Virus record (IMG/VR): IMGVR_UViG_3300009537_000054
Coordinates: 1-41,748 of that record
Direction: 5' to 3' (one strand)
Origin: a virus
DNA: 41,748 bases
In this document: piece by piece, positions 10,451 to 28,361 of the stretch
Position numbering within the stretch: position 1 is the stretch's first letter
Layout of the letters: the number at the start of each line of letters is the position of its first letter
Made by a program: the position numbers and the translations under genes
The notes under the pieces: generated by a model
Told to the model about the DNA's origin: nothing
The model's input: the letters and a program-made list of their open reading frames with translations, nothing else
Databases searched by the model: none

Positions 10451-11416
10451 TTAATAAGCGGCCTGGGTATTCGCCAGGGTAATCTGCAACATCGTGGCGC
10501 TGGTCGTTGAGTACACGCCTTTGCCACTGAAACCGACTTCAATTTTCTCCGCTCCCCCAGCGACTGGTTTGAAGTCGGTGTAACGGAAAAGAGGGACGAC
10601 CATGGTCAGCGTTTCCGGGTAGCCTGATTGAACTTCAGTCGCCCCTTTCATGTGGACGGTCAGGTTGCGCTCTGACTGTGAGAGGAATTGCTGGTACTCG
10701 GTCTGTGTGTCGAATATCAACGTCCCGCCCACGGCCAAGGTACGGCGGCCGCTACGGACAGTCCTGGATGGCGTTTTCGTGTTGTTGAGGGTGTTCTTAT
10801 TCTCAAGGGCCTCATCCAGTTCCAGGGTCATGTCGCTCATGTCCCCGTTCGCGCCACCGGCGATGGCCACGCTGGTCACATCCCAGGTGAACGGTTTGCC
10901 GGCCGGGTAACTGGCTGCGGGCGCCACGATCTGGGAGTACTTTCCCCCCATGAAGTCCATCGACGCCTTGAGCAGTTCCCCGTTGGCGATAGAGATCGAC
11001 AGCTTGCTCGCCACCATGTCGGAGTATCGGTGTGCACTTCCGGCGTCCCCCAGTATTTTGGTGAAGGTGAGCGGGTTGCTGGCGGCATAGACATCAAAGT
11101 CCGCTGTCCGTGGTTTGAAGGTGTGCGAATAAAACGCACCGGAGGTAACGGTTGTCGGTGATCCGAACATCGCCTTGAGCATCGCGCCCAAGGCTATCGG
11201 ATTGGCCTCGACCTCGAGGGTTGCCTCGTTCGCGTTCAATCCCTCGTGAGTCGCGCCCTCGTCGAATCGGCCGGTCATGTTCTCTTCGACCAGAGGTTCC
11301 TTGGTGACGGCGAACCCTTCCGACAGGAAAGGGATCCAATAAATTGAGTTTGCCAGAGCCGTCCCGTATGAATTCTGGAACGACATGCCGACGTTGGTTT
11401 TCATTCCGTAGCTCAT
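10451..11416 (-). CDS. Major tail tube protein
   Basis: 321 aa, beta-rich, just upstream of the chaperone pair. The composition and length are typical of siphovirus tube proteins. Confidence 0.65.
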   Translation of the reverse strand: MSYGMKTNVGMSFQNSYGTALANSIYWIPFLSEGFAVTKEPLVEENMTGRFDEGATHEGLNANEATLEVEANPIALGAMLKAMFGSPTTVTSGAFYSHTFKPRTADFDVYAASNPLTFTKILGDAGSAHRYSDMVASKLSISIANGELLKASMDFMGGKYSQIVAPAASYPAGKPFTWDVTSVAIAGGANGDMSDMTLELDEALENKNTLNNTKTPSRTVRSGRRTLAVGGTLIFDTQTEYQQFLSQSERNLTVHMKGATEVQSGYPETLTMVVPLFRYTDFKPVAGGAEKIEVGFSGKGVYSTTSATMLQITLANTQAAY

Positions 11417-11610
11417 AGCGTCTCCTCTGTCTTCGACTTCTTGGTTGGTGTTGGATTGTGGGCGGTCGGAGTATTCCCGATGGCTTTCGCCTCGCCCTGG
11501 TTGATAAACTTGTCGGCGAGGTCATCCGGCATACCGATGATGTCGCCCGTGTTCGCCACCCCTACGTCAGGGATGATCCGCTCCGGTGATAGCCACTCGA
11601 CTCTCTTCAT
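11413..11610 (-). CDS. Small hypothetical protein (neck/tail module)
   Basis: Start reset to ATG 11610 (ATGA overlap with the upstream stop). 65 aa. Confidence 0.45.
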   Translation of the reverse strand: MKRVEWLSPERIIPDVGVANTGDIIGMPDDLADKFINQGEAKAIGNTPTAHNPTPTKKSKTEETL

Positions 11611-12062
11611 ATTCCTGTCCTCGTCTCGTAAATGAGTGTAATAAATGCCCACTGGAAATCCATTGTCTTGCTCTCCGTCTCATCATAGCTGTATTCGATG
11701 TGTGCGGTGTTGAGCATACCAACCTTGTTCTTGATCGTCAGGTCAGAAAGCACGGCGGTCATCACATGATTGACAGCCTCTTCGAGAGCATCCTCGGCCT
11801 GCGGTCCGTTCGCCCCGTGTGCCTGGACTACCAGCTTCACGGTGATCTTGGCCTTCCATGAGTTCGCGTGATGGCCTAGCGCCCAAGGTTCGTAATCGAC
11901 GTCAGTCCGATATACCCCAACCCACGGGGTCCTCGCGGGGTCGCGGTTCACGTATTCACCCCGCTCAACGTCCTTGAAATTACCCTCGATGATCTCCGGG
12001 TGCTCCTTGAGCATCTTAACGAAGCTGTCGGTGATCTCGTTGGTTTTGATAAGGGCGCTCAT
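11607..12062 (-). CDS. Neck / tail-terminator-like protein
   Basis: 151 aa. The call is positional (between the Mu G-like gene and the tube gene). Confidence 0.4.
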   Translation of the reverse strand: MSALIKTNEITDSFVKMLKEHPEIIEGNFKDVERGEYVNRDPARTPWVGVYRTDVDYEPWALGHHANSWKAKITVKLVVQAHGANGPQAEDALEEAVNHVMTAVLSDLTIKNKVGMLNTAHIEYSYDETESKTMDFQWAFITLIYETRTGI

Positions 12063-12535
12063 GAGTTCAATGCCTTCTTATTCCACGCCGCCATGACCTC
12101 GCGCGCGGCACGCGTGACCTCTGCTTTCGCAGGGTTCTTGTCGGGGAGCATGGGCCTTGCTGGGAGTCCTTCTTCGCCCTTGTGGTGCGGTTTCGCATAC
12201 GGCAGGTCTGATCCGATGCCGGCCTGTTTCTTGTCTGCGAATGGTGTGAAGCTGGCCCTGAGCCTCCCGGTGTCCTGCAGGAGCTTCGCGGAGGCGTCGA
12301 ATGTCCGGCCCTTCGAGTTGGTTTTCCACCTCCCGCCGACTTTGAACGGCGCCCACCCGCCCACCTTACCGCCTTCGCTCTTGAAGTTCTTCTGTACCCA
12401 TTGATCAAGCAGAACCGCAGCTTGTGCGAGCGGTGTCCTCAGGTTCATCACAGCGTCACGCTTCACTCTCAGGCGCTTCCTCAGCTCCTGGGCGGTTGGT
12501 TTGATCGTTACCTCTAACTCATTTTTAGAGGCCAC
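12059..12535 (-). CDS. Virion morphogenesis / tail completion protein (Mu gpG-like)
   Basis: 158 aa with a GTG start. The motif LLQDTGRLRASF...IGSDLPYAKPHHKGEEGLPARPML resembles the Mu G / Phage_tail_S family. Confidence 0.55.
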   Translation of the reverse strand: MASKNELEVTIKPTAQELRKRLRVKRDAVMNLRTPLAQAAVLLDQWVQKNFKSEGGKVGGWAPFKVGGRWKTNSKGRTFDASAKLLQDTGRLRASFTPFADKKQAGIGSDLPYAKPHHKGEEGLPARPMLPDKNPAKAEVTRAAREVMAAWNKKALNS

Positions 12536-12972: not shown

Positions 12973-13248
12973 TTAGTTCACGTCCTTAATGACGGCGCGG
13001 TATGGTGTCCTGTTCTTGTACGGCTTTCCGGCGATGGTCGCAAGGGTCTGCGCTACATAATAGCCCGGTGTATTCGGGATGGTATGGAGGTGATAGTAAT
13101 GCCCATCACCGGAGCTGATCATTGTCCCGGAATCGACCAGTGCTTCCGCTCCGTCGAATGCCGTGGCGATGATCGCGCTCGGCGTGACGCCTGAATTAAC
13201 CCATCTGATCTTGACGGTATCCCCACAAAGGAAGTCTTGCGTGCTCAT
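12973..13248 (-). CDS. Small structural-module protein
   Basis: 91 aa with ATGA coupling to the upstream 612-aa gene. Confidence 0.45.
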   Translation of the reverse strand: MSTQDFLCGDTVKIRWVNSGVTPSAIIATAFDGAEALVDSGTMISSGDGHYYHLHTIPNTPGYYVAQTLATIAGKPYKNRTPYRAVIKDVN

Positions 13249-15083
13249 AGGTTTCGCATCTCCATCACTACTGGCTCGGCTCTCTCGATGTTTAGTCTAG
13301 CATCTGACTTGTCCAATGCCATCACTACTGGCTCGGCTCTCAGGCTTTGTAATACGAATCCCAGCAGGAGTTGATAATACGTGATCTGAGTGGAAAGTGA
13401 ATCCTGTGCGTCTGCGTCGTCTCTCAGTATCCGATCCAGAAGCGCGAACCGGAAGGCGTTGTCGGCGGCTTCTACCGGATCGCTGATCGTTCTGCCAAGC
13501 ATCAGCACGCGCGCGGTGTTGTCGGCGGTGGTGAGTGTATCGATCACTGCCCGGACTACTGAGGCGCTGTACCAAGTGCCGTCCCGTGCATCCACGGACT
13601 CAGATTCCCTGCGGTACATCTTAACCGCCCTCCTCACCGCGTCCTCGGCACTGATCCCGTCATTCAATAGCCTGGTAACGATCAGGACGCCTGCCAAGGT
13701 GATAGTCGAGGCGAAGATGTCATCTGCCGATGTGAAGTCGATGATTCTCCGGTAGGCCACAATAAACCGGCGCATCTCGTCGGTTGCCCCGGCGGTATCG
13801 GCGACCAGCGTCATCATCCTACGTGAGCGCGCGAGGGCGTCTTCTGTGGAGGCTGTGTCTTCCGTCCTCCGGTATGCCTTGGTCCCTCGGGTGGTGTTGT
13901 CCTGTGCGGTTGTGGTGTCCGTGGTCCTGTGGTTCAGGAGTGCGGCCCTTTGTACCAGCTCCGAGATGTCCACCCCGTCATTCAGGAGGCGAGACACAAT
14001 CAGGTATCCGCCTTCGGTGATCGTCCTGATCAGGGCGTCCGTGACAGGCGTCGTGTCAACCAGAATACGGATGAGCTGCAATAATCTCTGGGCGGAATCG
14101 ATAACCTCTGTGCCGTCGTTCGTCTTCCTGAAGGCTTCTATCGCCCGCTGCATCCGGTCGGTAAGACTGGCTTGGTCGTTCGTCGTCCTGCCCATCTGAG
14201 CTGATCTCATCACGGCGTCTGTTGGGTTAATTCGTGTCTCTCTGGCGATACGGTTCAACTTACGCGCTCTGGTCAGGGCGTCGGCCAGTGTCAAGATATC
14301 CGTCGGCATTTGCCGGTATGCCTTCGTTCCTCGGATCGGGCTGTCGGTGGTGCTTACAGACTCACTGATAGTCCTCGTGTAGTTGGTGCCGCCTAGAGCA
14401 TTCGGCCTGATCTCGAAACCAATGACCGAGTTTTCGTCTGCTGGAGTAGTGGCCGAGCCGCCCGTGATGGTCCCGGGGTCGGCGGTCGGGGTGGCCGTTT
14501 GCAGCTGGCACATGCAGCCCTGTGCGCCGATGGTCGAGGTGAAAAATTCCGCCAGCGCTTCCGTCCAGTCACCACCAGACTCGCCGGTAAAGCTGTCGAG
14601 CGTGTTGTTGTCGTCTTGAGATACAAGCGCGACCGCCAGCGCCCCGGCGACCGTTGTCGTTACAGTTGGTGCCTGCGGTGATGTATCGCTGGGGATGTCG
14701 CTGAAACTCGCGGCAGGAATGACATCGGTGATGCTGCCGGAAACGTATCCGCTGAAGCTGTAGATGCGACCGAAGCGGCCGGCCGTGCCGCCCGCCGTTC
14801 CGAAATTGATGGTAGCGCCGTCCTCGGTGCCGGCGGCGAGCTTTCCGTAAACGTAGGCGCGCCCGGTCGGGGTGCCGGTGCCAAGGCCCGCGCCGAGTCC
14901 TGAAACGGTGTAGAGCCTTGTCCAGCCCGAGGGGTCGGTTGGCTCGGTTGCGTTGTCGAGCCAGATGACATGCCCGACAAGGATGTCGTTTGCATCGACT
15001 GTCGCGGGGCAGGCCAGTGCAAGCTGCGCGCCGGTGGTTTCGGTGCCGCCACCGGCGCCTGCGGATTTATAGGCGATAGGCAT
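13245..15083 (-). CDS. Large repeat-containing virion protein (beta-rich N-domain plus duplicated helical repeats)
   Basis: 612 aa with an internal duplication (…RGTKAYRQMP…ITEGGYLIVSRLLNDGVDISE… / …RGTKAYRRTE…ITLAGVLIVTRLLNDGISAED…). The C-terminus carries a 19-aa duplication. Confidence 0.5.
   Translation of the reverse strand: MPIAYKSAGAGGGTETTGAQLALACPATVDANDILVGHVIWLDNATEPTDPSGWTRLYTVSGLGAGLGTGTPTGRAYVYGKLAAGTEDGATINFGTAGGTAGRFGRIYSFSGYVSGSITDVIPAASFSDIPSDTSPQAPTVTTTVAGALAVALVSQDDNNTLDSFTGESGGDWTEALAEFFTSTIGAQGCMCQLQTATPTADPGTITGGSATTPADENSVIGFEIRPNALGGTNYTRTISESVSTTDSPIRGTKAYRQMPTDILTLADALTRARKLNRIARETRINPTDAVMRSAQMGRTTNDQASLTDRMQRAIEAFRKTNDGTEVIDSAQRLLQLIRILVDTTPVTDALIRTITEGGYLIVSRLLNDGVDISELVQRAALLNHRTTDTTTAQDNTTRGTKAYRRTEDTASTEDALARSRRMMTLVADTAGATDEMRRFIVAYRRIIDFTSADDIFASTITLAGVLIVTRLLNDGISAEDAVRRAVKMYRRESESVDARDGTWYSASVVRAVIDTLTTADNTARVLMLGRTISDPVEAADNAFRFALLDRILRDDADAQDSLSTQITYYQLLLGFVLQSLRAEPVVMALDKSDARLNIERAEPVVMEMRNL
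13262..13284. repeat. 23-bp exact direct repeat, copy 1 (ccatcactactggctcggctctc)
   Basis: Identical to 13319..13341. The offset is 57 bp, in frame, and duplicates AEPVVM at the C-terminus of the 612-aa protein. Confidence 0.9.
13319..13341. repeat. 23-bp exact direct repeat, copy 2
   Basis: See copy 1. Confidence 0.9.
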
Positions 15084-15195: not shown

Positions 15196-15462
15196 CTAAC
15201 TTCCCACCGCCTCAAGCGCGCCCATGGTCGCCTGCGGTTTGGCGCGACACGGTGGTGCCAGCGGGGCGGCGGCGAGGCCAGGGCCGCAATCGGGCCAGCT
15301 ACCGGGGATCGGCAGCGGGTCAGGCGTTGGTGCTGGGGCCGTTTGATCGGCAGCGGGCGCGCCATTCTTTCCGCAGGCCACTATTCCAAAACCAACCGGA
15401 AGCACGGCAGTGGTCAGCAGCGTGACGGCCCACAGCCAGCGCCAGTCTCTCCTTATCCTCAC
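15196..15462 (-). CDS. Proline-rich lipoprotein (88 aa, GTG start)
   Basis: GTG at 15462..15460 overlaps the upstream TGA (GTGA). N-terminus RIRRDWRWLWAVTLLTTAVLPVGFGIVAC has a basic n-region, a hydrophobic core and an I-V-A-C lipobox. The mature part is Pro-rich with 3 more Cys. Confidence 0.55.
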   Translation of the reverse strand: MRIRRDWRWLWAVTLLTTAVLPVGFGIVACGKNGAPAADQTAPAPTPDPLPIPGSWPDCGPGLAAAPLAPPCRAKPQATMGALEAVGS

Positions 15463-15980
15463 AAATTGTGAGACCCGATGCTGATCTCTGCCTGTAACAG
15501 CAGGAAGTCGCTCGCCGCCAATGTGGCGTTGACCGAATTGGTCAGGTTGTAGGCGATACCCTGTCCGCTGCTCGCATGATTCACACAGGCCGCTGAAGCC
15601 AATGCCACGCCGGTCAGGCCGTCGGTATTCCCTGCCCACGTCATGGCCAGAATCACCGTCATTTTCGACGTGGCGAGTGTTGCCGGTGCCTTGCGACTGA
15701 CTTCTCCGAATTGCAGGCCGGTGTTCCCCAAGGAGAAGGCGGTCGATACCGTGCCGATGGCCAGATACGCTATCCCGCTGGTGGTGACCCCGATGGCCCT
15801 TGATGCGAGCGCGTTCAGGCCGGTGGCGGTGACAATGTTCTTCGGGATGATGGTCTCGTCGATGGACCCATCCGCGCGCGTGATGCGCTTGCGCCACTTC
15901 ACGTTGAGCGGGATGCGGTCGTGTAGCGCGTCCTGGAATTCTGCCAGGAGGCGCGCTTCCTCAGTAATATTTGGATTCAT
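15459..15980 (-). CDS. Structural-module protein, possibly fibre/collar related
   Basis: 173 aa. The pattern IVTATGLNALASRAIG...IAYLAIGT...GNTGLQFGEVSRK is reminiscent of tail-collar fibre N-domains. This is a weak call. Confidence 0.35.
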   Translation of the reverse strand: MNPNITEEARLLAEFQDALHDRIPLNVKWRKRITRADGSIDETIIPKNIVTATGLNALASRAIGVTTSGIAYLAIGTVSTAFSLGNTGLQFGEVSRKAPATLATSKMTVILAMTWAGNTDGLTGVALASAACVNHASSGQGIAYNLTNSVNATLAASDFLLLQAEISIGSHNL

Positions 15981-18900
15981 AGTTTTGGGTCCTCTCTGTC
16001 ATGAGTTTCAGGAACAACTTTTCTGCGTGTTCGCGTGAGTAAAATCTGGCTGTGATGGGCGGCTGTCTCTCCGGGTGCGCCCCACCATTCAGCTTGCTGG
16101 CGTCCATCGTGAAACCGAAGTCGAAGCCCTCCCCGAGTATCTCCACGAGGGTTGAGTAGAAGCTCATATTGTCGGAATCGGTGATCATCCGCAGCTGGCC
16201 GGCGTCGAGCAGTTCACCCCAGATTGCTATCCCTGCCTTGGCGCGCTCGACCATGGCCTCGGTGACGTGCCCCCCGTTGGCCTCGGCTTCCCATCGGCAC
16301 ATCTGGGACAGGTCTCTTAACCACAGGAACTTCCCGAGGACGCGATCCGGGTACTTCTCCCGGTCCCTAACAAGCAGGCCGATGTTCCGCTCGAACCGTT
16401 TCCGGCGGACCTCTTCGGTGCTGTATCCGTAATGAGCGATGGTCACATCCCCCATGATGGTCGCGTGTCCGACGCCTTTGTTGATCTCGAGCTCAGGGTG
16501 TTCATGGACTACCCCGAAGAATTTGATGCCCTTACCATTACGGTAGAACCTTGATGGCAGGTCGGTTTTCATGATGCCAGCCGGCTCAACGCTGTAGTGA
16601 AGCTGCTTGATGGCATAAGCGTTGAACATATTCTCGCGGAGGTACTTCCTGACGTTCTCCGGGTGGAATAGCACCTCGTCGGCGTCGATCCAGAGTATCC
16701 AGTCGGCTTTAGCCTTGGCGGTACACTGATTCCTGGCCTCGTCGAATCCGATCTCCAAGGGTGATTTGATGTCGAACAGGAGGTCTTCCTTTGGAGAGAA
16801 CCCTTTGACGTACTTCGCCGCAATGGCCCGGGTCTCGTCCTTGGTGGTCTCGTCGACCGCGACAATGATCTCGCTGGCGATGTTCTTCACGGATTCCAGG
16901 CATCTGCCCAAGCTGTGCTCGGCGTCCTTGGCGATGATACAGACCGCGAGGGTTTGGCTCGGTGCCAGATATTTGAACTTTCGTGAATAGTCGATGCGCC
17001 CGCTTGGCTGGGTCGGCTTACCGAAAACCGCGATATAACTGCCGAGGGCGTCACCGTTCCGGTCTGTGCCTCCGGTGGCCAGGTTCACGTTAAACCCTGT
17101 GTGCATACCGAACAGGTCATGCAGGTCTTGTCTTTCAAGGTGATGGACGTGCGCCCTCCACGGCCAGTGTTCCCGGTAGCCTATCGCCTCCCAAGGGCCA
17201 AGTGGTGTGGTGGTGATAAACTTCCCGCCTTCCTTGAGGTACTTCCCGAGAGCATCGATCATCTCCCACGGTGCTTCGACGTGCTCAAGAACCTCGGCGA
17301 CGATGATGGCATCGAAGCTTTCTAGTGCAGGCGCTTCGTCGTCCCCGGCCACTTTAATAATGCCGACCTCAACGCTTCCGGTGATAAAAGTAGCGTTCCG
17401 TGTTCCGTCACTGTCAGCCCACTTTCGGGCTGTGGCGATATTGCTGGCGGCGATGTCGATTCCGATGAACTTGAGGTCTGGAAAGGCTTTCGCCAGATTG
17501 TTCGTATAGTGACCATGAGCGCACCCATAATCACAAACGACGCTACCAGCAGGGAGACTGCCAAGGTGACCGGCCACAGTAGCAAAACGGTTATTGTGCG
17601 TGCAATCTTCCGGCCCGTACTCAACTCCGCGCTGTTTCTCATAGTCGTAGTACCTCTCATAGTGTTCCTTCCAGGCGCGGTCGCGCGCGAAGGCGTAGCA
17701 CTCCTGCATCTCTTTCGCCGCGGTATTGTCCCCCGTGTGGTCGGTTGGGTGTTCTGCAGCGTACTTCTCGGCGGCGTAGTAGTCGCTCGTATGAATGAGG
17801 CTCTTTAAGACGGTCTCCGGGTTCTTCGTGCGTTCGGCGAACAGTTCTTCAATGTGCTTCTCGAAGCCCTCGGCGGCGATTGACCAGGCGAGCTTTACAC
17901 CAGCCCCGCGCTGTGCTGCGCGCATAACGTCAGGGCTAAGTAGCATGGGCCGCTCATCGCTATACTCCTCCGAAAATAAATCTACTACGGTTCCAACAAA
18001 AGACGCTTCATCGGCAACGCCGTTCTTTAGATTAATCAAATGCGAGCCGCTAAATTGGCACGTCTCAGGCAACGCACCAACGTGCGATGCGATGAACGGC
18101 AGGCCGGCTGCCATCGCTTCCATCGCCGTGATGCAGTTGTGGATAACGACTCCGCCAGCGATGAAATTATGCGTGCGTTCGACCTCCATATCGTACACAT
18201 CCTCATGTCCGCATGGCTCAACACTGACGACCTTGTGATTGAAGGCCGCACCCTTGGCCGCGAGGTTCGAGCGCTTCTTGGCAGCACGACTGTCGATCCA
18301 AGCCTGCCGCTCCTCTGGAGGCATGGCGTTGACCTTTTCCCACAGCTTGTCGCCGGCTTTACTTAGTGTCTGAATCCGCTCGGCACGGAAATCCGCATCG
18401 CCTTCCCATTTCTTGCGCCAGCCATTCACGTGTGCGCGCGCGGCATGCGGCGTCTTCACTAATCCACGGAACGTCTTCTTCGCGTGATCCGAAGGCGACA
18501 GCACTTGCAGGTTGTCCGGCATGTTGTTCAGCGGGTTCCCGTCGATATGATCGACGTGGTGGCCCTTCGGAATATCGCCATGGACGTATTCGGCGATGAC
18601 CCGATGCTCATGTGGCCAGCGGCCCGAACCGGTAGACACGGTAATCTGGGCATGCTTCTTCAGAGCCACCGCAGATTCGCCAGGCTGTAAGTCTTTCAAC
18701 TCGACCCAGCCGCGCTTGTACGTCAGCACCTTGTGGTCCGGAGTGGCACGCAGGCATGTCCCATCGTCCCAAAGGACCTTCCAGATTTCGCGATTCTTGC
18801 CTGTTTTTGCTACCCATTTCACCTGTGACAATATGAACTTCCCGTTTTCCTCGTCGTATGACCAGACAGGGAAACCGCTCTTGCCGACCAGTTCACTGAT

Positions 18901-19791
18901 CGGCACGCCGCGCGGGTACTTCGTATAATCACGCGGCATGTCGATGAGCGTATCGCCGACGCAACAGGAAACTTCTTCGAATTCAGAGGGGTACACAAGG
19001 GCATCACACTGCCTCATGGTGTCCGCCAACTGTTGCTTGGTCAGGCTACCCATGTTGGTGCAGTTCGGTAACTCCTCGATGCGCGAGTACAGATAGGCGT
19101 ACATATCCGCGAGGTGCGGCGGGTTGTTGTCGTAGTTACAGACATAGAGCCGGAAGCGCTTATCGATCTCCCAGAGCCTTTCCATGATCCCACCCGGGCG
19201 AACGTGGTGCGCCAATCCGCGCTCCGGTCGTGAGGTGTAGAGCAGGGCGATCTCGTCCTTAACTTTCGGCAGCTTGAATCGCGGTTTGCCTTGGAATAGG
19301 TTCAGGTCCACGCCGTTTGTCACGGTCTTAACGATCTCCGGAGCCAGTCCGTAGACCTCGCAGAGCTGTTTCTTGTGCCATTCACTGACACAGAATACCG
19401 CGTCGATATTCCAGAGGCCGGCGGCGATGGAGGGCTTCTGTCGGTGAAGGGCGAGGTCGTGCATCCAGGCGATATTCAGCTTGGCCTGGAACCTGTGGAC
19501 AAATGCGCCCGGCTGGCGCTGCATGATCAAGACGTCAGTCGGTGTGTTGCTGGCGTAGAAGTGAAACCGTTCCCCGAGGGGTGCCCGCTCGTTCAGGGGT
19601 CCTGCCCAGATGTATTTCACCCCGTCGAAGTTCCCCTCGTTCGGATCGTTGGTGAATATCGTTACCTTGTGTCCCCTGGCCGCGAGCTCCTTGGCGATGT
19701 AATAGGCCGCTGACTCGGATCCTCCGAGGGATTTGGTCTTGAGGGTGTCGCCGTTGAACGGCATGCCGCCACAATGAATGGTGATCAGCAT
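15961..19791 (-). CDS. GT4 glycosyltransferase (split by intein) / class I SAM methyltransferase / GT2 glycosyltransferase fusion protein
   Basis: 1276 aa. GT4 spans aa 1-275 plus 553-~650 (E-x7-E restored after intein removal, EAMAAGLPFIAS). MTase spans aa ~735-925 (VVCDYGCAHG, FDAIIVAEVLEHV; nt ~17017..17589). GT2 spans aa ~946-1135 (LAVCIIAKDAEHSL..., WILWIDADEV; nt ~16387..16956). Confidence 0.8.
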   Translation of the reverse strand: MLITIHCGGMPFNGDTLKTKSLGGSESAAYYIAKELAARGHKVTIFTNDPNEGNFDGVKYIWAGPLNERAPLGERFHFYASNTPTDVLIMQRQPGAFVHRFQAKLNIAWMHDLALHRQKPSIAAGLWNIDAVFCVSEWHKKQLCEVYGLAPEIVKTVTNGVDLNLFQGKPRFKLPKVKDEIALLYTSRPERGLAHHVRPGGIMERLWEIDKRFRLYVCNYDNNPPHLADMYAYLYSRIEELPNCTNMGSLTKQQLADTMRQCDALVYPSEFEEVSCCVGDTLIDMPRDYTKYPRGVPISELVGKSGFPVWSYDEENGKFILSQVKWVAKTGKNREIWKVLWDDGTCLRATPDHKVLTYKRGWVELKDLQPGESAVALKKHAQITVSTGSGRWPHEHRVIAEYVHGDIPKGHHVDHIDGNPLNNMPDNLQVLSPSDHAKKTFRGLVKTPHAARAHVNGWRKKWEGDADFRAERIQTLSKAGDKLWEKVNAMPPEERQAWIDSRAAKKRSNLAAKGAAFNHKVVSVEPCGHEDVYDMEVERTHNFIAGGVVIHNCITAMEAMAAGLPFIASHVGALPETCQFSGSHLINLKNGVADEASFVGTVVDLFSEEYSDERPMLLSPDVMRAAQRGAGVKLAWSIAAEGFEKHIEELFAERTKNPETVLKSLIHTSDYYAAEKYAAEHPTDHTGDNTAAKEMQECYAFARDRAWKEHYERYYDYEKQRGVEYGPEDCTHNNRFATVAGHLGSLPAGSVVCDYGCAHGHYTNNLAKAFPDLKFIGIDIAASNIATARKWADSDGTRNATFITGSVEVGIIKVAGDDEAPALESFDAIIVAEVLEHVEAPWEMIDALGKYLKEGGKFITTTPLGPWEAIGYREHWPWRAHVHHLERQDLHDLFGMHTGFNVNLATGGTDRNGDALGSYIAVFGKPTQPSGRIDYSRKFKYLAPSQTLAVCIIAKDAEHSLGRCLESVKNIASEIIVAVDETTKDETRAIAAKYVKGFSPKEDLLFDIKSPLEIGFDEARNQCTAKAKADWILWIDADEVLFHPENVRKYLRENMFNAYAIKQLHYSVEPAGIMKTDLPSRFYRNGKGIKFFGVVHEHPELEINKGVGHATIMGDVTIAHYGYSTEEVRRKRFERNIGLLVRDREKYPDRVLGKFLWLRDLSQMCRWEAEANGGHVTEAMVERAKAGIAIWGELLDAGQLRMITDSDNMSFYSTLVEILGEGFDFGFTMDASKLNGGAHPERQPPITARFYSREHAEKLFLKLMTERTQNYESKYY
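18136..18966 (-). mobile_element. Intein with HNH homing-endonuclease domain (277 aa, residues 276-552 of the host ORF)
   Basis: Begins CCVGDTLI, has the central motif HHVDHIDGNPLNNMPDNLQVLSPSDH, and ends GGVVIHN followed by Cys+1 (CITAMEAM). The codon positions were verified on the sequence. Confidence 0.8.
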
Positions 19792-19937: not shown

Positions 19938-20099
19938 TTAGCCCTTCGGCTTGTCGGTTGTCTTCTGGCCTTGCTGCGGTGCGTCTTTCACCGGCATGCC
20001 CTTGTTCATGTCGTTCCCTCCCCATCGGGAGTTGTCCTGCTTGTATTCCTTCATCTGCTGCTCATAGTTCAAATCCGCTTTGTGTGGGATTAAAGCCAT
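19938..20099 (-). CDS. Small hypothetical protein (53 aa)
   Basis: Start reset to ATG 20099 (GAGGAGG RBS). Lys/Gln/Asp-rich. Confidence 0.45.
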   Translation of the reverse strand: MALIPHKADLNYEQQMKEYKQDNSRWGGNDMNKGMPVKDAPQQGQKTTDKPKG

Positions 20100-20100
20100 A

Positions 20101-20289
20101 TCAGACCTCCTCTTTTTTGCGTTCAAAAACGACCGCGACGCGTTCATCATACACATACTTTTCTGTGGACTCGCCATCTTGCAGAATGGTGAAGTCGGTG
20201 GTGTCTTCGTCGTCCGGTAACATCTTGATACCGAAAAACACGTCTTTGTTCGGCCCGCAGTGTGCTGTTACTTTAACGCTAGTAGTCAT
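20101..20289 (-). CDS. Small hypothetical protein (62 aa)
   Basis: Start reset to ATG 20289 (GAGAGGAAA RBS). It follows the terminator after the capsid gene. Confidence 0.5.
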   Translation of the reverse strand: MTTSVKVTAHCGPNKDVFFGIKMLPDDEDTTDFTILQDGESTEKYVYDERVAVVFERKKEEV

Positions 20290-20311
20290 GTTCGTTTCCT
20301 CTCGCACTTGG

Positions 20312-20354
20312 AAAAAACCCATCGGACCCGGTGTGCGTGACAGGTCCGTTGGGG
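20312..20354 (-). terminator. Rho-independent terminator downstream of the major capsid gene
   Basis: Minus-strand RNA: CCCAACGGACC - 14-nt loop - GGUCCGAUGGG followed by UUUUUU (10 bp plus 1 mismatch). It starts 19 nt after the capsid stop codon. Confidence 0.7.
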
Positions 20355-20372: not shown

Positions 20373-21341
20373 TTACGCGGCACAACTCTGGACGAGGAAG
20401 CCGAAGCGCGCTCCGGTGATTTTCTCGGCCTGGTAGTAACCGACCTCGATGTCGTCGGTCTTGGTCTTGCTGTTGTACGGGTGACGTTCCACCTGCATGT
20501 TCGGGATGCCCGGTGCGCTGAGGCGATACGAGTACATGAAGGACGGGCGGTCGATACTCGGGGTCGGCGGCGCGTAGTACACCAGTACCGATGGTCCCCA
20601 GATGGCCCCGATGGTATTGCCGATGTTCTCTTCCCCGGTGTTCTTGAACATGCCGGCCACGTTGACACTCTCCATCTCGAACAGGTCCTTGGCTTGGCTG
20701 GTGTTCAAATAACCTCCACCGTTGTTCGTACCGAAGATGATATTTCGGACGTTCTTGTGGCGGCGGAAACCATCCCAAGCCTTGGCGCCGAAGATCATGC
20801 GGTTTGGACGGTAACCCGTCGCATAGCGCACGTTGTCGATGGCGGTATTCAGGTCCACCAGAGGATTACCGTCACCTTCGACGGTGCTCCAGATGGAGCT
20901 GACGGCGGCACTCGACCCCACGTTGGTGGTCGATGTCACCTGCAGGCTTACCCGGTTCTCCCAGTTCAGTTGCAACTTCTCGGTCAGGCGCAGTGCCTTT
21001 CCTTCAATCTCGCGGGTGGCATATACGGGGTCCGCATTGCTGCGGTCCTCTATGGTGACACCGTCTTGGAGAGCGTAGTTGTTGCAGTAGTACAGCTGTG
21101 AGCTGACGTCCGAGGTGTAGCGTTTGGCCTCGGTGCCCGGTGCACGGCGGTCATCCACTACTCTCCATCGGTCGCCCTGGCTGAACTCGATGATGGAGCC
21201 GGATTGTTTCATGACCGGCACGACTGGCGCGATCACGTCCGCGATCATCCCTTCCTGGCGATAATCGATGATGGTATTGGACAGCGGGAGGTCGAGATAG
21301 AGATCCCGGCCCACGGCTGCAAATCTGATCTTCTTGTTCAT
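20373..21341 (-). CDS. Major capsid protein (HK97-fold, gpE-like family)
   Basis: 322 aa. Start reset to ATG 21341 (AAGGAG RBS 7 nt upstream). It follows the protease/scaffold and decoration-like genes, and the sequence pattern resembles the gpE family. Confidence 0.8.
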   Translation of the reverse strand: MNKKIRFAAVGRDLYLDLPLSNTIIDYRQEGMIADVIAPVVPVMKQSGSIIEFSQGDRWRVVDDRRAPGTEAKRYTSDVSSQLYYCNNYALQDGVTIEDRSNADPVYATREIEGKALRLTEKLQLNWENRVSLQVTSTTNVGSSAAVSSIWSTVEGDGNPLVDLNTAIDNVRYATGYRPNRMIFGAKAWDGFRRHKNVRNIIFGTNNGGGYLNTSQAKDLFEMESVNVAGMFKNTGEENIGNTIGAIWGPSVLVYYAPPTPSIDRPSFMYSYRLSAPGIPNMQVERHPYNSKTKTDDIEVGYYQAEKITGARFGFLVQSCAA

Positions 21342-21351
21342 TGAGTTCTCC

Positions 21352-21732
21352 TTAGGGTCCGCTGGATACGCCAGTGGCGGCGAAATTGAAGAGGCCCTCG
21401 ACGGTGGCGCCGGAAGCCGCTGTGGCCAGTGCGCGCCCGCATGGAGCAACTGCCCCAACGGCCGTGATGAGGTAGCCAGAGGTAGTCACGATCAGACGTG
21501 CGCCGGCCGTAACGGCTGCTCCGGCAACGCCCTTCATGTGGCCTTCCCAACCGACCTGAGCGTCTTCACCGCTTTTCGGCTTGTTCTGCAACAGACCGAT
21601 AGCTACGGTTCCGGTAGCGGCGATGGTGCCACCGACGGCGACGGCCTTGTACTGGGCGCCCGTACCGCCGCCAGTATTGAGGTCGGCACCAGCGGCGAGC
21701 TGGATGCTTCTGAAATTACCTGTTCCGCTCAT
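21352..21732 (-). CDS. Head decoration-like protein (DUF2190-like)
   Basis: 126 aa, Gly/Ala-rich, immediately upstream of the capsid gene as is usual for DUF2190 proteins. Confidence 0.5.
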   Translation of the reverse strand: MSGTGNFRSIQLAAGADLNTGGGTGAQYKAVAVGGTIAATGTVAIGLLQNKPKSGEDAQVGWEGHMKGVAGAAVTAGARLIVTTSGYLITAVGAVAPCGRALATAASGATVEGLFNFAATGVSSGP

Positions 21733-21733
21733 G

Positions 21734-22807
21734 TTATTTCTCCTCGTCGTTGCCGATGTAGGCTTTCGCCAGCTCCGGGTTGCCTTCCATCACGCGGTCC
21801 CGTGCTACCGTGAAGGACATCTTGCTATCCTTCGCCTGTAGCCCTTTGGCGAGTGCGGTAATGGCGGCGCCTGGGTCTTCCAGCTGCTTGGCCAGATCGC
21901 CTTCGTCGGTGTCGTTACCGCTGCCACCTCCCTTGCCCTGTTCGGTGCTCATCTTGGCCTTGCCTCCGTTGATCTTGATGAACTCGTCGATGCTTTCGGC
22001 GGTCACGTCCATGACGGCCTTATCATCGTTGAGTCGCATGAACTTGACCGTGCTTTCGCGCTGGGCTGGTGTCAGGCGCTTGTCTTTCACTGCGGCCTCA
22101 AGGCGTCCGGTCAGGTCTTCCCGGTGCATCTTGATCTTGCCCTTTGCGGCCTCATCGTCCGTCTTGGCCTTGTCGGCCTTGAGCTGCTCGTTCTCGGCTT
22201 TCAGGGTCGCGTTCTCGGTGGAGAATTTGGCCAGGTCGGCCTTCACCGGAGCGAGGGCTGCTTCGGTGGCTTTCGTCACCGCCTTCTCGATCTCTTCTGG
22301 TGTCATGTTGTTGTCCTCGTTGGTTAGGTTGCCCTGTACTGTGCTGAACACTTCCCGACGACTGGCAGCGAGACGCTCGCCTCCGTCAAGGTATGTGGCC
22401 AGGTCGGCCAGGGTATTCACTGCCGGGATATCTGCTCCCAACAATGCGACTGCGGAAAGAACATATTTATATTTCTTTCCACGGTGTTCGACGTCTACAT
22501 CCAATTCCACTGATACATGTCTGTACATCTTAGCGTCGAATGCCTTTTTGACAATGCCCGGCACGTTATCGAAGCGCGCCATGAGCTTGTCTGATTCGTT
22601 CACCCATACTTTCGTCACCCATCCCAGGGCCGGGTATCCGTCCGTCATGGGCTGGCTGTCGTTGTGTCCGAACTTCAGCGGCACCTTGTGATTCTCGGCC
22701 AAGGCTTCGAAGTTGGCGACGATGTCATGCAGGTCCTGGGTGGTGAATTTCCAGGTCTTGTTCCACGTCCCCGGTGCGAATATTTCTGCGTCTATCGAGT
22801 AGAACAT
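21734..22807 (-). CDS. Prohead protease / scaffold (Mu gpI-like)
   Basis: 357 aa. The N-domain motif ...VPLKFGHNDSQ...GYPALGWVTKVWVNESDKLMARFDNVP...MYRHVSVEL resembles the Mu-like gpI family. The C-terminal half is a Lys/Glu/Ala coiled coil. Confidence 0.55.
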   Translation of the reverse strand: MFYSIDAEIFAPGTWNKTWKFTTQDLHDIVANFEALAENHKVPLKFGHNDSQPMTDGYPALGWVTKVWVNESDKLMARFDNVPGIVKKAFDAKMYRHVSVELDVDVEHRGKKYKYVLSAVALLGADIPAVNTLADLATYLDGGERLAASRREVFSTVQGNLTNEDNNMTPEEIEKAVTKATEAALAPVKADLAKFSTENATLKAENEQLKADKAKTDDEAAKGKIKMHREDLTGRLEAAVKDKRLTPAQRESTVKFMRLNDDKAVMDVTAESIDEFIKINGGKAKMSTEQGKGGGSGNDTDEGDLAKQLEDPGAAITALAKGLQAKDSKMSFTVARDRVMEGNPELAKAYIGNDEEK

Positions 22808-25273
22808 TTATCCTCCGAATCCATCCATCGGCTCAATACTCGGGTCTGGTGATCGCTCCCAGGTATCGCGCACGGTGACGGCGATTAACAATGACCGGCA
22901 GTTATAGTGTAGCGGTGGCGTGTAGGTTTCCCAAATTGGATCATTCAGTTCGTAGATTTTCTGATCCATGTGCTCGCAGACTTCCGTTGTCCTGCTGTCG
23001 AGGATGGCGCTGTATTCAAGCGCCTCAACGAAGCCGTCCATCTCGGGTGACGCGAAGAACTCATACCGCGCCTCGTTGATGGCTTCAAAAACGGATGTCC
23101 TGATGGCTGTCGCGGCATGAGGTAGTACCGTGACGCCGAGTTCCTCTTCAACGCGGTTGAGTATTTCGTCGATGGTCCATCCGCCCTTGATGCCGTTGTA
23201 TAAGACGGTCGTGACCTTCTTCCGTGCGGCGTCGGCCAGATCTCCGGCGATGGTATAAGAACGTGACTCAAGGAACTTCTGAGCGGCCAGATCTGCCAGG
23301 CGCATCTCGTCGGCGGCGAATCTCCCGCCTTGTGCCTTCTCAAGTTCCCTGCGTGCATGATCTCCCCCTAAATCCCATCCTTCCTTGAGCCCAGCCTCAG
23401 CGGCTTTCCGCACACGAGTCAGTATTTTGGCCGGCATGCCGATGTCGGCGATCTTGTCGGGATTTTTGAACAGGTCCTCGGTACGGATGAATTCCTTCAT
23501 CGCGTCCACCCCGGCCCGTAGTGCTTCGGAGACTTTCGAGCTGGTCCGCCCGGTGATCTGCGTACCCCTATTGTCGATCACGGCGAAGTCCACGCGCTTG
23601 ACCGCGCGCGCGAGGAACTCTGCCTTGCGGTCTGACTTGATGCGCTTGGCCCCGATGACTGTTTCGCCCATGTCCGGCTTCTTGCCAGGCGGTTTGGTCG
23701 GCTGTTGTCCGGGTAGTGCCGGCGGTATCTGGGCTATGGGTGGAATGGGCTTCCCCGTGGCTGGGTCGATTGCGGCGCCCGGCAGCTCCCTGGGGAGTGC
23801 CTTTTCTGGTTTGTCGAGCGGTTCGCCTGCCTCGGGGAAGTCCAAAAGTTCGCGGATATGTTTCTCATCCGCATCGGTGGATGTGACGGCGTTGCCCTTT
23901 ACGAGCTCCAGCCACGTCTTGATGATCTGCATCTTGAGCGCTTCGCTTAACGGTTTGAACCGGAAGCGCGGGTATGGACCTGCCCCGAAGTTCAATTCAC
24001 CCAGGGGCTTGAATAGACCTTCGTTGAGAATTTCCTCAAGGCGCTTCGTTTCCGCTTCGAGGGTCCACAGGAATGCTTCGAGCTGGGTCTGTGATTGAGC
24101 GAAACTTCCCGTACTCCCTTGTTCGCTAATCCCCAACAGGTTCGGCACCAAAAGGGCTTTGGCGATTGATTTATCATGGACGGTGATGGCTTTTTCATAG
24201 GCGTCCGTAGTCGCTGGGTATATGAGTTCCGCGTCTATTCCCGATGGAAGTATTACCCCGGTCTTCGGGCTGAGGTTCTTAATGAAGTTGACCAGGGCGG
24301 TGTATTCAGCGCTGGATGCGTTGAGGGTCGTGCCTTCCTTCGGTTGGATCTTGAGGAAGCCCGATGCGTAGCGTTCAAGGAAGACGTTCCAGAAACGGAT
24401 TGCCATGTCCTTGCTGAACCAGGCTCGATAGGCTTCTCTCAGTTCACTCTGACCGTAATGCGGATCCACGTCCGAGTTCTGGACGTAGTGGATGAATCGG
24501 GACATGTCGATCTTTTGCTCACGTCCCTCGAATCGCTGGATGCAGTCCTTGATGTTGCCGTACTCATCCGGGACAAAGCGGAAGGTATCGAACGGCTTTA
24601 GGGCGAGGCGCTTTAATCCGACCCACGTCTTACCGCTGACCTCAATGTCCATCTGGACCTTCTCGGTCATCGAGAAACCGTACTGCATGGCGGTGGCTAT
24701 ACCGTTCAGGGAGTCGAAGAATGAGCCGTCCATCTGCTCAATGATCTGCTCGAAGACTCTGATACGCAGCTCCTGTTCATCGGTCAGCGCGCCCTTGTCC
24801 TCTTCCTCCAGGTCCTCGGGATTGGTGATATCCTCGTCATCTACTTCGTCTTTTTCCTCGTATTCCCCATCATTGTTCGGGTCTTCAATAGGCAGTCCCG
24901 TGATCGGGTCCATACCGTTTGCGTCGAACCTCGCCATCTTTGGCTTGACGATAGGGTTCTTGGTGCCGCCTTTAGCGGTGGGATCTTCGGTCTCGGTCTT
25001 GTTCGCTTCGAGGACGTCTTTGGCGTCGTACTCGAAGAACCAACGCCTACCGGTAATGGCGTCGCGTTTGAATCGGACGACGGCCTTCACCTGCTCGTCG
25101 GTCATCATGCGCCTATAGACGGCGGCGCCCTTGGTGTTGATGAGTTCGTCTGGGTTGTACTTCTGCCACGCACTGCGTGAGTAAATGAGCGACTCACTCC
25201 AGCCAGTCTCGCCTGATACTGCTTTGTTAAGCGCGCCTGTTTCTTCTGGCTTGCCTGCGAACCAACCTTTCAT
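22808..25273 (-). CDS. Portal protein (Mu gp29/DUF935-like) fused to a MuF/SPP1 gp7-like head morphogenesis domain
   Basis: 821 aa from ATG 25273 (ATGA overlap; the ORF track used TTG 25285). N-terminal motif YRRMMTDEQVKAVVRFKRDAITGRRW. C-terminal motif TYTPPLHYNCRSLLIAV is typical of MuF domains. Confidence 0.8.
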   Translation of the reverse strand: MKGWFAGKPEETGALNKAVSGETGWSESLIYSRSAWQKYNPDELINTKGAAVYRRMMTDEQVKAVVRFKRDAITGRRWFFEYDAKDVLEANKTETEDPTAKGGTKNPIVKPKMARFDANGMDPITGLPIEDPNNDGEYEEKDEVDDEDITNPEDLEEEDKGALTDEQELRIRVFEQIIEQMDGSFFDSLNGIATAMQYGFSMTEKVQMDIEVSGKTWVGLKRLALKPFDTFRFVPDEYGNIKDCIQRFEGREQKIDMSRFIHYVQNSDVDPHYGQSELREAYRAWFSKDMAIRFWNVFLERYASGFLKIQPKEGTTLNASSAEYTALVNFIKNLSPKTGVILPSGIDAELIYPATTDAYEKAITVHDKSIAKALLVPNLLGISEQGSTGSFAQSQTQLEAFLWTLEAETKRLEEILNEGLFKPLGELNFGAGPYPRFRFKPLSEALKMQIIKTWLELVKGNAVTSTDADEKHIRELLDFPEAGEPLDKPEKALPRELPGAAIDPATGKPIPPIAQIPPALPGQQPTKPPGKKPDMGETVIGAKRIKSDRKAEFLARAVKRVDFAVIDNRGTQITGRTSSKVSEALRAGVDAMKEFIRTEDLFKNPDKIADIGMPAKILTRVRKAAEAGLKEGWDLGGDHARRELEKAQGGRFAADEMRLADLAAQKFLESRSYTIAGDLADAARKKVTTVLYNGIKGGWTIDEILNRVEEELGVTVLPHAATAIRTSVFEAINEARYEFFASPEMDGFVEALEYSAILDSRTTEVCEHMDQKIYELNDPIWETYTPPLHYNCRSLLIAVTVRDTWERSPDPSIEPMDGFGG

Positions 25274-25497
25274 TTTTTCGAGCAAGTGTTTTCTCCCCAG
25301 CGCACTTGGATATCGAGCCCACGCACTGATTTAACCACGCTTCCGGTCGCCGCGCATAATTGAATATAGCAGCTTCGGCTCATGGTGATTGAGGTTGGTC
25401 GTTCATCGTGTTCGGCAATGTATGCCGCCTTGGCCTTATCGACTTGGTTGAGCCAGTCGATCATGTACTCGGATAAATCATGCTCACCAGTTTTCAC
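25270..25497 (-). CDS. Small protein between terminase and portal
   Basis: 75 aa with a GTG start (an alternative ATG lies at 25464). ATGA-coupled to the portal gene. Confidence 0.45.
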   Translation of the reverse strand: MKTGEHDLSEYMIDWLNQVDKAKAAYIAEHDERPTSITMSRSCYIQLCAATGSVVKSVRGLDIQVRWGENTCSKK

Positions 25498-26716: not shown

Positions 26717-27024
26717 TTCTTGACCTTATTGAATACGATGTTGATCGTTGGCGGAATGAGGGGCGCGCCGTCTGCTCCGGTCAACGCAGTAGGCTTCTTG
26801 GTATGGACGTAGGGCGCCGCTTCGGATGCGGCGATACGGCGAATGTCAATCGGGAGGGATTGATCACCGGATATGCCTTGAAGGACTTCGAGAGGCGTGA
26901 TGCCTTTGGCGGCGGCGATTAACTGGGCGTTGGTGCGTATAAGCACCTTGCGCGATTTCCAGCCTGGCTTACTTCCAGACCTTGGCGCAGTCTCTTTCGT
27001 GAATGTTGTCTTGCTTCTGGCCAC
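26713..27024 (-). CDS. Putative terminase small subunit
   Basis: 103 aa, basic, directly upstream of and coupled to terL. GTG start without a clear SD. The call is positional. Confidence 0.45.
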   Translation of the reverse strand: MARSKTTFTKETAPRSGSKPGWKSRKVLIRTNAQLIAAAKGITPLEVLQGISGDQSLPIDIRRIAASEAAPYVHTKKPTALTGADGAPLIPPTINIVFNKVKK

Positions 27025-28188: not shown

Positions 28189-28361
28189 GGCGTCACCTTC
28201 ACGCACGATAGAGACGTCTGTGGCGCGCGATCATCGTAGTAGCAAATCACCCCGTACTGATCTTGTGGGTAGTGGTTCAGGTACGGATAACCGTAGTCTG
28301 ATGCTTCTGTTCCGCATCCTAGCAGGGCTATGGTTGCGATTAATGCGAGCGTGGTTTTCAT
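28185..28361 (-). CDS. Small lipoprotein / exported Tyr- and Cys-rich peptide (58 aa)
   Basis: ATG 28361 overlaps the rSAM-2 stop (ATGA). MKTTLALIATIALLGC has a classic L-L-G-C lipobox. The mature 42 aa contain 7 Tyr and 2 further Cys. Confidence 0.6.
   Translation of the reverse strand: MKTTLALIATIALLGCGTEASDYGYPYLNHYPQDQYGVICYYDDRAPQTSLSCVKVTP

Follow-up and report, generated by a model that had tools for sequence, protein, structure and literature searches.

To our knowledge, glycosylated phage particles are documented only in some actinobacteriophages, and they are reportedly considered rare elsewhere (Freeman et al. 2023). The glycosylation of capsids by phage or virus enzymes is already known, as are multi-domain enzymes that combine glycosyltransferases (GTs) with methyltransferases. 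In mycobacteriophages, glycans are reportedly carried by the C-termini of capsid and tube subunits (PMC12619734, PMC11600133, both citing Freeman et al. 2023). The chlorovirus protein PBCV-1 A064R adds two rhamnoses to a capsid glycan and 2-O-methylates the last of them (PMC7826918), and in GmaR of Listeria the N-terminal domain transfers GlcNAc to flagellin, which its tetratricopeptide repeat (TPR) domain is proposed to recognise (PMC9638930). Here we examine a gene of an uncultured virus, IMG/VR record IMGVR_UViG_3300009537_000054, of which positions 1 to 41,748 form the window analysed throughout. The gene lies on the minus strand between the capsid and neck genes, and encodes a GT4-type glycosyltransferase, a class I S-adenosylmethionine (SAM)-dependent methyltransferase and a GT2-type glycosyltransferase in one chain that is interrupted by an intein. 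Its closest counterparts are the mycobacteriophage glycosylation genes, PBCV-1 A064R and the bacterial enzyme WsaE. Of the functions considered for this gene, decoration of virion proteins with a methylated glycan has the most support, and we give it roughly an even chance.

The original prediction, made by a model from the letters alone, had described the open reading frame (ORF) as a fusion of GT4, SAM methyltransferase and GT2 modules that would measure about 999 amino acids (aa) after intein removal. Both statements were borne out, the first by Pfam profiles above curated cut-offs and the second by the intein boundaries; each of the strings it had quoted (VVCDYGCAHG, FDAIIVAEVLEHV, LAVCIIAKDAEHSLGRCLESV and WILWIDADEV) is present in the translation. 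All Pfam matches given below were obtained on the 1276-aa ORF and exceed the curated cut-off of their family. The parts of the gene are as follows.

15961..19791, minus strand: ORF of 1276 aa comprising the intein-split GT4, the class I methyltransferase, the GT2 and a helical tail; stop codon at 15961-15963.
18967..19791, minus strand: N-extein, residues 1-275, with the N-terminal GT4 Rossmann domain and most of the C-terminal one (Glyco_transf_4; AlphaFold2 (AF2) and Foldseek).
18136..18966, minus strand: intein of 277 aa with Cys1, TPDH block B and terminal HN (Intein_splicing, 79.5 bits; NCBIfam intein_Nterm and intein_Cterm).
18481..18606, minus strand: HNH homing endonuclease inside the intein, residues 396-437 (HNH_3; PHROG HNH endonuclease families).
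17821..18135, minus strand: start of the C-extein, completing the GT4 (CITAMEAMAAGLPF...), with Glyco_trans_1_4 / Glycos_transf_1 fragments at 553-584.
17596..17820, minus strand: helical linker between GT4 and methyltransferase, extein 381-455 (AF2 secondary structure).
17011..17595, minus strand: predicted class I SAM-dependent methyltransferase, extein 456-650 (Methyltransf_23/31/12/25/11; PDB profile matches).
16417..16968, minus strand: predicted GT2 of GT-A fold, GmaR/SunS/ThuS clade, extein 665-848 (Glycos_transf_2; PDB profile matches).
15964..16416, minus strand: C-terminal helical tail, extein 849-999 (AF2 helices 849-942; Foldseek).

The intein occupies residues 276-552, and its excision leaves exactly 999 aa. 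It starts with CCVGDTLI (C276) and finishes with VVIHN (N552), the Cys+1 being C553 in the extein, so that all of the sequence blocks expected for splicing (Cys1, TxxH, His-Asn and the +1 nucleophile) are present. Intein_splicing covers residues 296-552 (79.5 bits, cut-off 35.8) and HNH_3 residues 396-437 (55.7 bits, cut-off 24.8), the latter marking a homing endonuclease. The insertion point falls within the EX7E motif of the GT4: the N-extein stops at the first Glu of the motif (...PSEFEEVS), and splicing restores the signature PSEFE-E273-VSCITAM-E281-AMAAGLPF, a proper EX7E. More than 119 insert-free homologs of about 1000 aa align through the intein junction, which indicates that the gene is intact without the insert.

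Conservation was read from 120 aligned full-length homologs (46-79% identity), with residues numbered in the spliced extein, and the AF2 model of the spliced protein (mean pLDDT 87.8, pTM 0.85) was compared with known structures by Foldseek. In the GT4 module, Glyco_transf_4 (PF13439) matches residues 23-164 (51.3 bits, cut-off 28.5). Because the intein splits the C-terminal half of the GT4, this half is matched only as fragments of Glyco_trans_1_4 / Glycos_transf_1 directly after the intein (residues 553-584); homologs lacking the intein carry PF00534 and PF13692. E281 of the EX7E is found in 120/120 homologs and position 273 is Glu or Asp in 120/120, and across the module G23, G24, R188, K252, E273 (E or D) and E281 are invariant or conservatively substituted in all 120. 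The corresponding part of the model resembles MshA (3c4q; Foldseek E=7.8e-16, TM to target 0.70) and PimA (2gej; TM 0.72), and other matches of this GT-B part include the methylmannose-polysaccharide mannosyltransferase ManT and GlgM. The GT-B fold, the profile and the EX7E all agree with a GT4-type assignment, from which glycosyl transfer is predicted.

The helical linker that follows is the least conserved segment of the protein (mean column identity 0.54). Beyond it, Methyltransf_23 matches residues 745-902 at 65.5 bits (cut-off 27), and four related Pfam families pass as well. Motif I, DYGCAHG, and D502, the acidic residue after strand 2, are kept in 120/120 homologs, as are D477, G479, G483, E556 and H560 in addition to D502. 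PDB profile matches include 3mgg (6.6e-13) and WbdD (7e-6); as regards the class of acceptor, the matches are generic and below threshold (UbiG, 43 bits against 103; TrmB, Hen1 and OvoA; WbdD). By its fold motifs the module is a class I SAM-dependent methyltransferase, and a methylation reaction is predicted.

The GT2 module is matched by Glycos_transf_2 (PF00535) at residues 950-1085 (57.3 bits, cut-off 23.3), so that the methyltransferase and GT2 assignments are both upheld. The domain calls for the three modules would survive any profile search. The DxD (WIDADE), VHEHPE and HxGY motifs of the GT2 are invariant in 120/120 homologs, with D703, R743, N744, D759, D761, E762, H819, E820, H821, H843 and Y846 as the invariant residues. 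When its profile was compared with all PDB sequences, the top matches were GmaR (5.8e-25), two SunS constructs (about 2e-21 and about 3e-21) and ThuS (4.8e-19); the next GT2 match, at 2.3e-6, is about 13 orders of magnitude weaker than this group. The alignments have the RN, WIxxIDADE, VHExP, HxGY and RN motifs in common. These comparisons place the GT2 module within the protein- and peptide-glycosylating GmaR/SunS/ThuS clade, though not as a SunS orthologue, and by analogy with these relatives its acceptor would be a protein or peptide side chain. Foldseek alignments of the C-terminal part to SunS/ThuS extend over 290-307 columns, longer than the GT-A core, and R852, R855, R858, N859, D866 and R867, among others, are invariant in the tail. 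In the model, the helical tail is probably the counterpart of the helical domain that follows the GT-A core in SunS/ThuS.

With the residues for catalysis and cofactor binding preserved in every module across 120/120 homologs, all three activities appear to be under purifying selection. The enzyme is acidic (net charge about -24), and a hydropathy scan detected no transmembrane segment in it (maximum 19-residue hydropathy 1.44); as judged by these properties it is soluble.

The distribution of the fusion sets it apart from cultured phages. A near-identity DNA search of GenBank phages gave no match to the window gene, and tblastn against 50,697 phage records gave 52 matches, intein-only (most of the best 40) or single-domain, and no relative of the fusion. 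In the assembly index the exact 1276-aa protein has no record, and the 173-aa protein encoded next to it has one, on a JGI contig of 41,748 nt. This agrees with the original prediction, which had held that such a fusion is not a standard part of Mu-like or lambda-like siphoviruses. The capsid encoded in the window shares at most 27% identity with any cultured phage capsid. In a search of 5.8 billion metagenome proteins, by comparison, the fusion had 1304 matches; among the best 120 of these, 119 are full-length tri-domain proteins (957-1048 aa, 46-79% identity) that are intein-free and lie on contigs of up to 53 kb. IMG/VR holds 277 relatives. With the GT2 and tail alone as query, 473 clusters (at 50% identity) were found at E<=1e-30; nearly all of the best 150 are about 1000 aa long and carry this module as the C-terminal part of a fusion. 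The genomes that encode the fusion come from many environments. Among GTDB species genomes there were nine matches, all in metagenome-assembled genomes (MAGs) and mostly on phage-sized contigs. A Pseudomonadota host is possible, hinted at by the bin labels of the MAGs only.

Synteny was examined in both directions. At 75 loci with at least 2.5 kb upstream of the fusion, the same capsid type was found upstream on the same strand in 72, with a median gap of 345 nt. With the capsid gene as anchor instead, a further set of IMG/VR loci offering 2.5 kb or more of downstream sequence had the fusion downstream of the capsid in 41/41, and no enzyme-free members of the lineage, which were sought as comparators, occurred among them. 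The agreement of the forward (72/75) and reverse (41/41) counts leads to the conclusion that the fusion is a core gene of its lineage and not a sporadic moron. The gene is thus no one-off: by these sequence comparisons, it marks a large, wholly uncultured siphophage lineage of hundreds of phages. The suggestion that such fusions might always neighbour capsid genes held at nearly all of these loci and failed in a sister clade of three loci, L085, L086 and L091. Cultured phages with distantly related capsids (Bhz63, RcapMu and RDJL Phi 1) have the same module order, with a hypothetical gene of 160-220 aa at the site of the fusion.

The C-termini of the lineage capsids were examined because mycobacteriophage glycans have been reported on C-termini. 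Among 61 distinct family capsids (loci L001-L151), 50 have at least two Ser, Thr or Cys residues within the last six, typical endings being AVNSST, NVTSST, THVTSV and GVGSSQ; 18% of the internal six-residue windows of these capsids reach that count. Only 2 of 11 outgroup capsids, from cultured phages without the enzyme (ending, for example, in QGAGL, GGIVA or NAGAAA), do so. The major capsid protein is therefore placed first among the possible acceptors, as it usually ends in a short Ser/Thr-rich tip. From sequence, it is the leading candidate, and the tip is a lead, not proof.

GT2 enzymes are an inverting GT-A family, GT4 enzymes a retaining GT-B family, and class I methyltransferases use SAM as donor. 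Combining these properties with the findings above, we propose an assembly line in one chain, by which a virion protein would receive a short glycan that is primed, extended and methylated in turn, a model we regard as about equally likely to be right or wrong. After the intein has spliced out, a soluble, cytoplasmic, trifunctional enzyme of 999 aa would be made late, alongside the virion proteins. The GT2, with its helical tail, would recognise a phage protein and place the first sugar on Ser/Thr (or Cys); the GT4 would then add a second, alpha-linked sugar, and the central methyltransferase would methylate the glycan, probably as a cap. The likeliest acceptors would be proteins of the virion surface, the major capsid protein first. 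We infer the order of the reactions, the identities of the sugars, the O-methylation of a sugar and the acceptor. What strengthens virion glycosylation as a reading is the combination of the GT2 clade, a core gene locked to the capsid, a soluble acidic enzyme and the capsid tip. A broader proposition is that a methyl-capped virion glycan, made by one polypeptide and carried on a capsid Ser/Thr tip, is an ancestral and obligatory trait of widespread uncultured siphophages, outside the Actinobacteria-infecting phages; this we advance tentatively, as somewhat less probable than the model itself.

Several points weigh against virion glycosylation. No phage of the lineage is cultured. The window capsid itself ends in VQSCAA (20376-20393, minus strand), not NSST, and about 18% of family capsids lack the tip; the Fisher p of 8e-5 for the tip in family versus outgroup capsids is overstated, as the sequences are not phylogenetically independent. 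The GT2 scores 51.6 bits against the SunS equivalog model TIGR04195 (NCBIfam), far from the cut-off of 350 for membership, and the GT4 and methyltransferase modules have generic relatives only, with no pointer to an acceptor. The strict synteny may be partly inherited and is no proof of a functional link to the capsid. Lastly, in the three loci of the sister clade no recognisable structural genes were found in the neighbourhood, and at two of them, L085 and L086, a CI/LexA-type S24 repressor (PHROG_4, E about 1e-46) lies in divergent orientation to the fusion, so a conversion-type or cellular role is possible in that clade. The fusions in question (L085:8289-13036, L086:3790-8377 and L091:2018-5380) share 60-63% identity with one another and about 38-46% with the capsid-linked clade. 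An FAD-linked oxidase of cellular type is also present in L085, whose MAG is likewise the source of L084, with the capsid-linked copy on a 117-kb contig; in L090, a GH15 hydrolase and a signalling protein lie upstream of the fusion. As the sister clade lies away from capsids, the architecture is not confined to capsid neighbourhoods.

The structural operon on the minus strand runs from TerL through portal+MuF, protease, a 126-aa protein, capsid, two small ORFs and the enzyme to a 173-aa ORF, and continues with a 612-aa ORF, a 91-aa ORF, a 148-aa ORF, Neck1, tail terminator, tube and tape measure. This confirms the position that had been claimed for the gene, in a late operon between the capsid and the neck and tail genes on the same strand.

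25484-26716, minus strand: TerL.
22808-25285, minus strand: portal+MuF.
21734-22807, minus strand: protease.
20373-21341, minus strand: major capsid protein, 322 aa, C-terminus ...GFLVQSCAA (PHROG_1005 major head protein, E=9e-52).
19938..20322, minus strand: two small ORFs between capsid and enzyme with good Shine-Dalgarno sites, likely of 62 aa (ATG 20289) and 53 aa (ATG 20098).
15459..15980, minus strand: 173-aa ORF, fibre-like or tail-protein-like (PHROG tail-fibre match; Foldseek).
12973..15083, minus strand: variable 612-aa fibre-like protein (13245-15083) and 91-aa ORF (12973-13248), without family matches.
12059-12535, minus strand: Neck1.
11607-12062, minus strand: tail terminator.
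10451-11416, minus strand: tube (Phage_tube_2).
7524-9842, minus strand: tape measure.

The 173-aa ORF shares 20 nt (15961-15980) with the enzyme gene, to which it is translationally coupled. The overlap with a structural gene had been part of the original prediction; its length stands, and the structural nature of the overlapping gene is indicated weakly, by a PHROG tail-fibre match at E=2e-4 and by the single significant Foldseek match of the protein model (pLDDT 75), to a tail chain of Haloferax virus HFTV1 at E=1.8e-4. The protein is found only within this lineage. Downstream of the fusion, which could be counted over 72 loci, the 173-aa gene is adjacent in 39, often overlapping, with the 20-nt overlap of the window recurring identically in L001 and L002; in 18 loci the fusion leads straight to the 148-aa and Neck1 genes, and the remaining loci have other inserts. 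Between about a quarter and nearly half of the related loci thus lack the overlapping gene and the fibre-like genes after it. In L001 an 878-aa Laminin_G_3 protein takes the place of the fibre block, and in L002 ORFs of 151, 429 and 233 aa do so. The presence of unrelated proteins at the site of the 612-aa ORF, within a variable block, points to an optional, swappable fibre or adhesin module. The 173-aa and 612-aa proteins were also considered as a universal substrate of the enzyme and are ruled out as such, since 18/72 loci have neither.

The N-terminal part of the 612-aa protein is rich in Gly, Thr and Ala, and after it comes a helical region with an internal duplication; RGTKAYR occurs twice there, with a similar Thr/Asp/Arg-rich segment after each copy. 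In the gap between protease and capsid, a 126-aa Gly/Ala/Thr-rich protein (21352-21732, minus strand) is kept in nearly all loci, reaching 234-440 aa in some, and the gene at its position in Chromohalobacter phage YPCBV-1 is annotated DUF2190; it may be a head decoration protein and, as such, a second candidate glycan acceptor. Between the capsid and enzyme genes, no excess of terminator-like or promoter-like sites and no Rfam match was found, and the hairpin region GGATGCCGCC/GGCGGCATCC folds no better than shuffled sequence (z = -1.35).

The alternative that survives best is remodelling of the host envelope, in which the enzyme would build or cap a lipid-linked or wall glycan (of O-antigen, capsule or S-layer type) and leave the virion untouched, serving superinfection exclusion, receptor masking or progeny release. 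We consider it unlikely, at well below the chance given to virion glycosylation, and yet several observations speak for it: the structural neighbours of the GT4 include the envelope enzymes PimA, WaaG and PglA as well as the methylmannose-polysaccharide mannosyltransferase, there is a weak match between the methyltransferase and WbdD, which terminates O-antigen chains, and in WsaE a soluble MT-GT-GT enzyme is known whose substrate is a lipid-linked glycan (PMC2943079). The repressor beside the sister-clade genes, moreover, marks a typical site of lysogenic conversion. The capsid-linked genes tell differently, since 113 of the 116 loci tested have the fusion as a core gene of the late structural operon, which is not the behaviour of a sporadic moron. 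Nor did the window ORFs that were scanned include a flippase, Wzx/Wzy, ABC exporter, GtrA/B or priming phosphoglycosyl transferase; the enzyme is strongly acidic and devoid of a membrane segment, and the closest relatives of its GT2 act on proteins or peptides. As to lifestyle, the scanned ORFs of the window include no recognisable integrase or repressor.

The same relatives of the GT2 raise another possibility, that the target is a phage or host protein or peptide outside the virion, for example a small glycocin-like peptide, or a protein of the host surface or of host defence. The substrates of SunS and ThuS are small peptides encoded nearby, and the stretch directly upstream of the enzyme gene holds ORFs of 53 and 62 aa. 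These ORFs, however, are not conserved in the family; the 53-aa ORF alone has matches, confined to the closest loci, and just one of the two likely products contains Cys, a single residue. Scans of the window found no genes for bacteriocin export or immunity, and the sole universally linked neighbours of the fusion are the capsid and neck genes, all of which makes this explanation improbable. Slightly more so is the synthesis of a free methylated oligosaccharide or glycoside that would aid phage replication as a small molecule. It draws on the small-molecule substrates of the GT4 relatives MshA, GlgM, sucrose-phosphate synthase and the tetrahydrobiopterin glucosyltransferases, and on matches of the methyltransferase to UbiG, OvsM and N-methyltransferases; it offers no rationale for the strict linkage to the capsid, no other metabolic genes lie alongside, and the GT2 with its helical tail resembles enzymes that recognise proteins. 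Hypermodification of DNA, with modified bases glycosylated and methylated to evade restriction, is very improbable: phages do have GT-A and GT-B enzymes able to assemble di-sugar chains on 5hmC (bioRxiv 10.1101/2023.12.21.572611) and the window has a small DNA methyltransferase (40430-40960) and two radical-SAM proteins, but such pathways are clustered (bioRxiv 10.1101/2023.12.21.572611) and no thymidylate-synthase-type hydroxymethylase, 5mYOX/TET or C5-cytosine methyltransferase lies beside this gene, which sits in the late structural operon and encodes an enzyme with a net charge of about -24 whose methyltransferase belongs to small-molecule-type Pfam families, not DNA_methylase.

The window DNA methyltransferase-like ORF (176 aa, plus strand; PHROG_11619, E=5e-40) belongs to the early region and is unrelated to the methyltransferase of the fusion. 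The two radical-SAM ORFs lie just upstream of the terminase (27125-27868 and 28358-29008, both minus strand), and the pair is also present in L001 (1041-1712 and 1717-2385). The large terminase appears as two ORFs that overlap by 4 nt on the minus strand (26713-27024, 103 aa, and 25484-26716, 410 aa); in the closest relative, L001, it is a single 511-aa ORF. The split may reflect a sequencing error, a frameshift or some programmed event.

Inteins were absent from 91 related loci, and occur elsewhere in the family at two sites. In P0259 an intein of HNH type occupies the GT4 site that is used in the window, P0267 and P0353 have a LAGLIDADG-type intein within the GT2 domain, and P0335 has two inteins, one at the GT4 EX7E site and one at the GT2 site. 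Repeated, independent invasion of two catalytic sites fits a conserved and important gene. The enzyme family thereby adds two to the intein insertion sites known so far, each within the active site of a glycosyltransferase; a literature search found no report of inteins in glycosyltransferases. Architectural variants also exist, among them P0341 with an extra GT2 domain, P0352 with an extra N-terminal methyltransferase and P0278 with an N-terminal extension of about 350 aa.

If glycosylation of the virion is correct, it would extend to a major uncultured phage group, and modification of phage particles would be far commoner in nature than the few mycobacteriophage cases suggest. Its purpose would then be environmental (shielding, adhesion or stability, for example) and not the evasion of antibodies. 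In that case the fusion together with the capsid Ser/Thr tip could serve as a metagenome marker for glycosylated phages, and the enzyme as a compact tool, encoded by one gene, with which a protein could be given a defined methylated glycan. The literature searched holds no description of a GT4-MT-GT2 chain with a GT2 of the protein-priming clade, a fixed position after the capsid and such breadth in uncultured phages.

Compared with described systems, the closest solved relatives of the GT2 module are GmaR, the Listeria flagellin O-GlcNAc transferase, and the glycocin S-glycosyltransferases SunS and ThuS, which act on protein or peptide side chains and, like this module, have a helical domain after the GT-A core. 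They differ in being single-activity enzymes with long TPR-type tails, GmaR having an antirepressor domain in addition; none is fused to a GT4 or a methyltransferase, and they belong to cellular or prophage bacteriocin and flagellar systems. Among viral proteins in BFVD, A0A6J5T3W3 (1119 aa), A0A6J5M7M7 (787 aa) and A0A6J5SUQ0 (936 aa) of uncultured Caudovirales combine GT-A/GT-B and methyltransferase folds and align with the AF2 model over 750-980 columns. At 12-14% identity and an rmsd above 20 A they are different fusions, and they are uncharacterised.

WsaE of Geobacillus stearothermophilus (MT-GT-GT) is likewise soluble and trifunctional, its two GTs building an S-layer glycan and a 2-O-methyl cap ending the chain (PMC2943079). 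Unlike the product proposed here, its rhamnan is lipid-linked, exported and then passed to protein by an oligosaccharyltransferase; the order and families of its domains differ from those of the fusion, and its gene belongs, together with an ABC transporter, to a cellular cluster of glycan genes. PBCV-1 A064R (638 aa) is also a virus-encoded single chain with two GT domains and a methyltransferase. Its source is a giant virus of eukaryotes, and it has the order GT-GT-MT in place of GT4-MT-GT2, and extends an existing N-glycan where the present enzyme would prime the protein; it was absent from the top BFVD fold matches.

The mycobacteriophages remain the nearest precedent for glycosylation of the particle itself. 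Virion-glycosylation systems have phage-encoded GTs, with or without an O-methyltransferase, and so does the window. Che8 (cluster F1) and Corndog (cluster O) encode phage GTs, cluster O having one O-methyltransferase and three GTs, which is the same repertoire in kind. Homology to these enzymes beyond the level of CAZy family was not seen among the best 40 of the 52 tblastn matches, none of which is a mycobacteriophage, so there is no close homology within that set. The precedent that had been invoked for this gene holds for glycosylation and is weaker for position: the GT genes of cluster F1 lie near the 3' genome end, outside the structural operon (PMC11256854), whereas the fusion lies between the capsid and neck genes. 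Those phages have Actinobacteria as hosts, and glycosylation is reported as demonstrated for them; for the present lineage, which is uncultured, it is what we infer. The mycobacteriophage enzymes are encoded by separate genes, and here the corresponding activities are predicted to be united in one chain of 999 aa.

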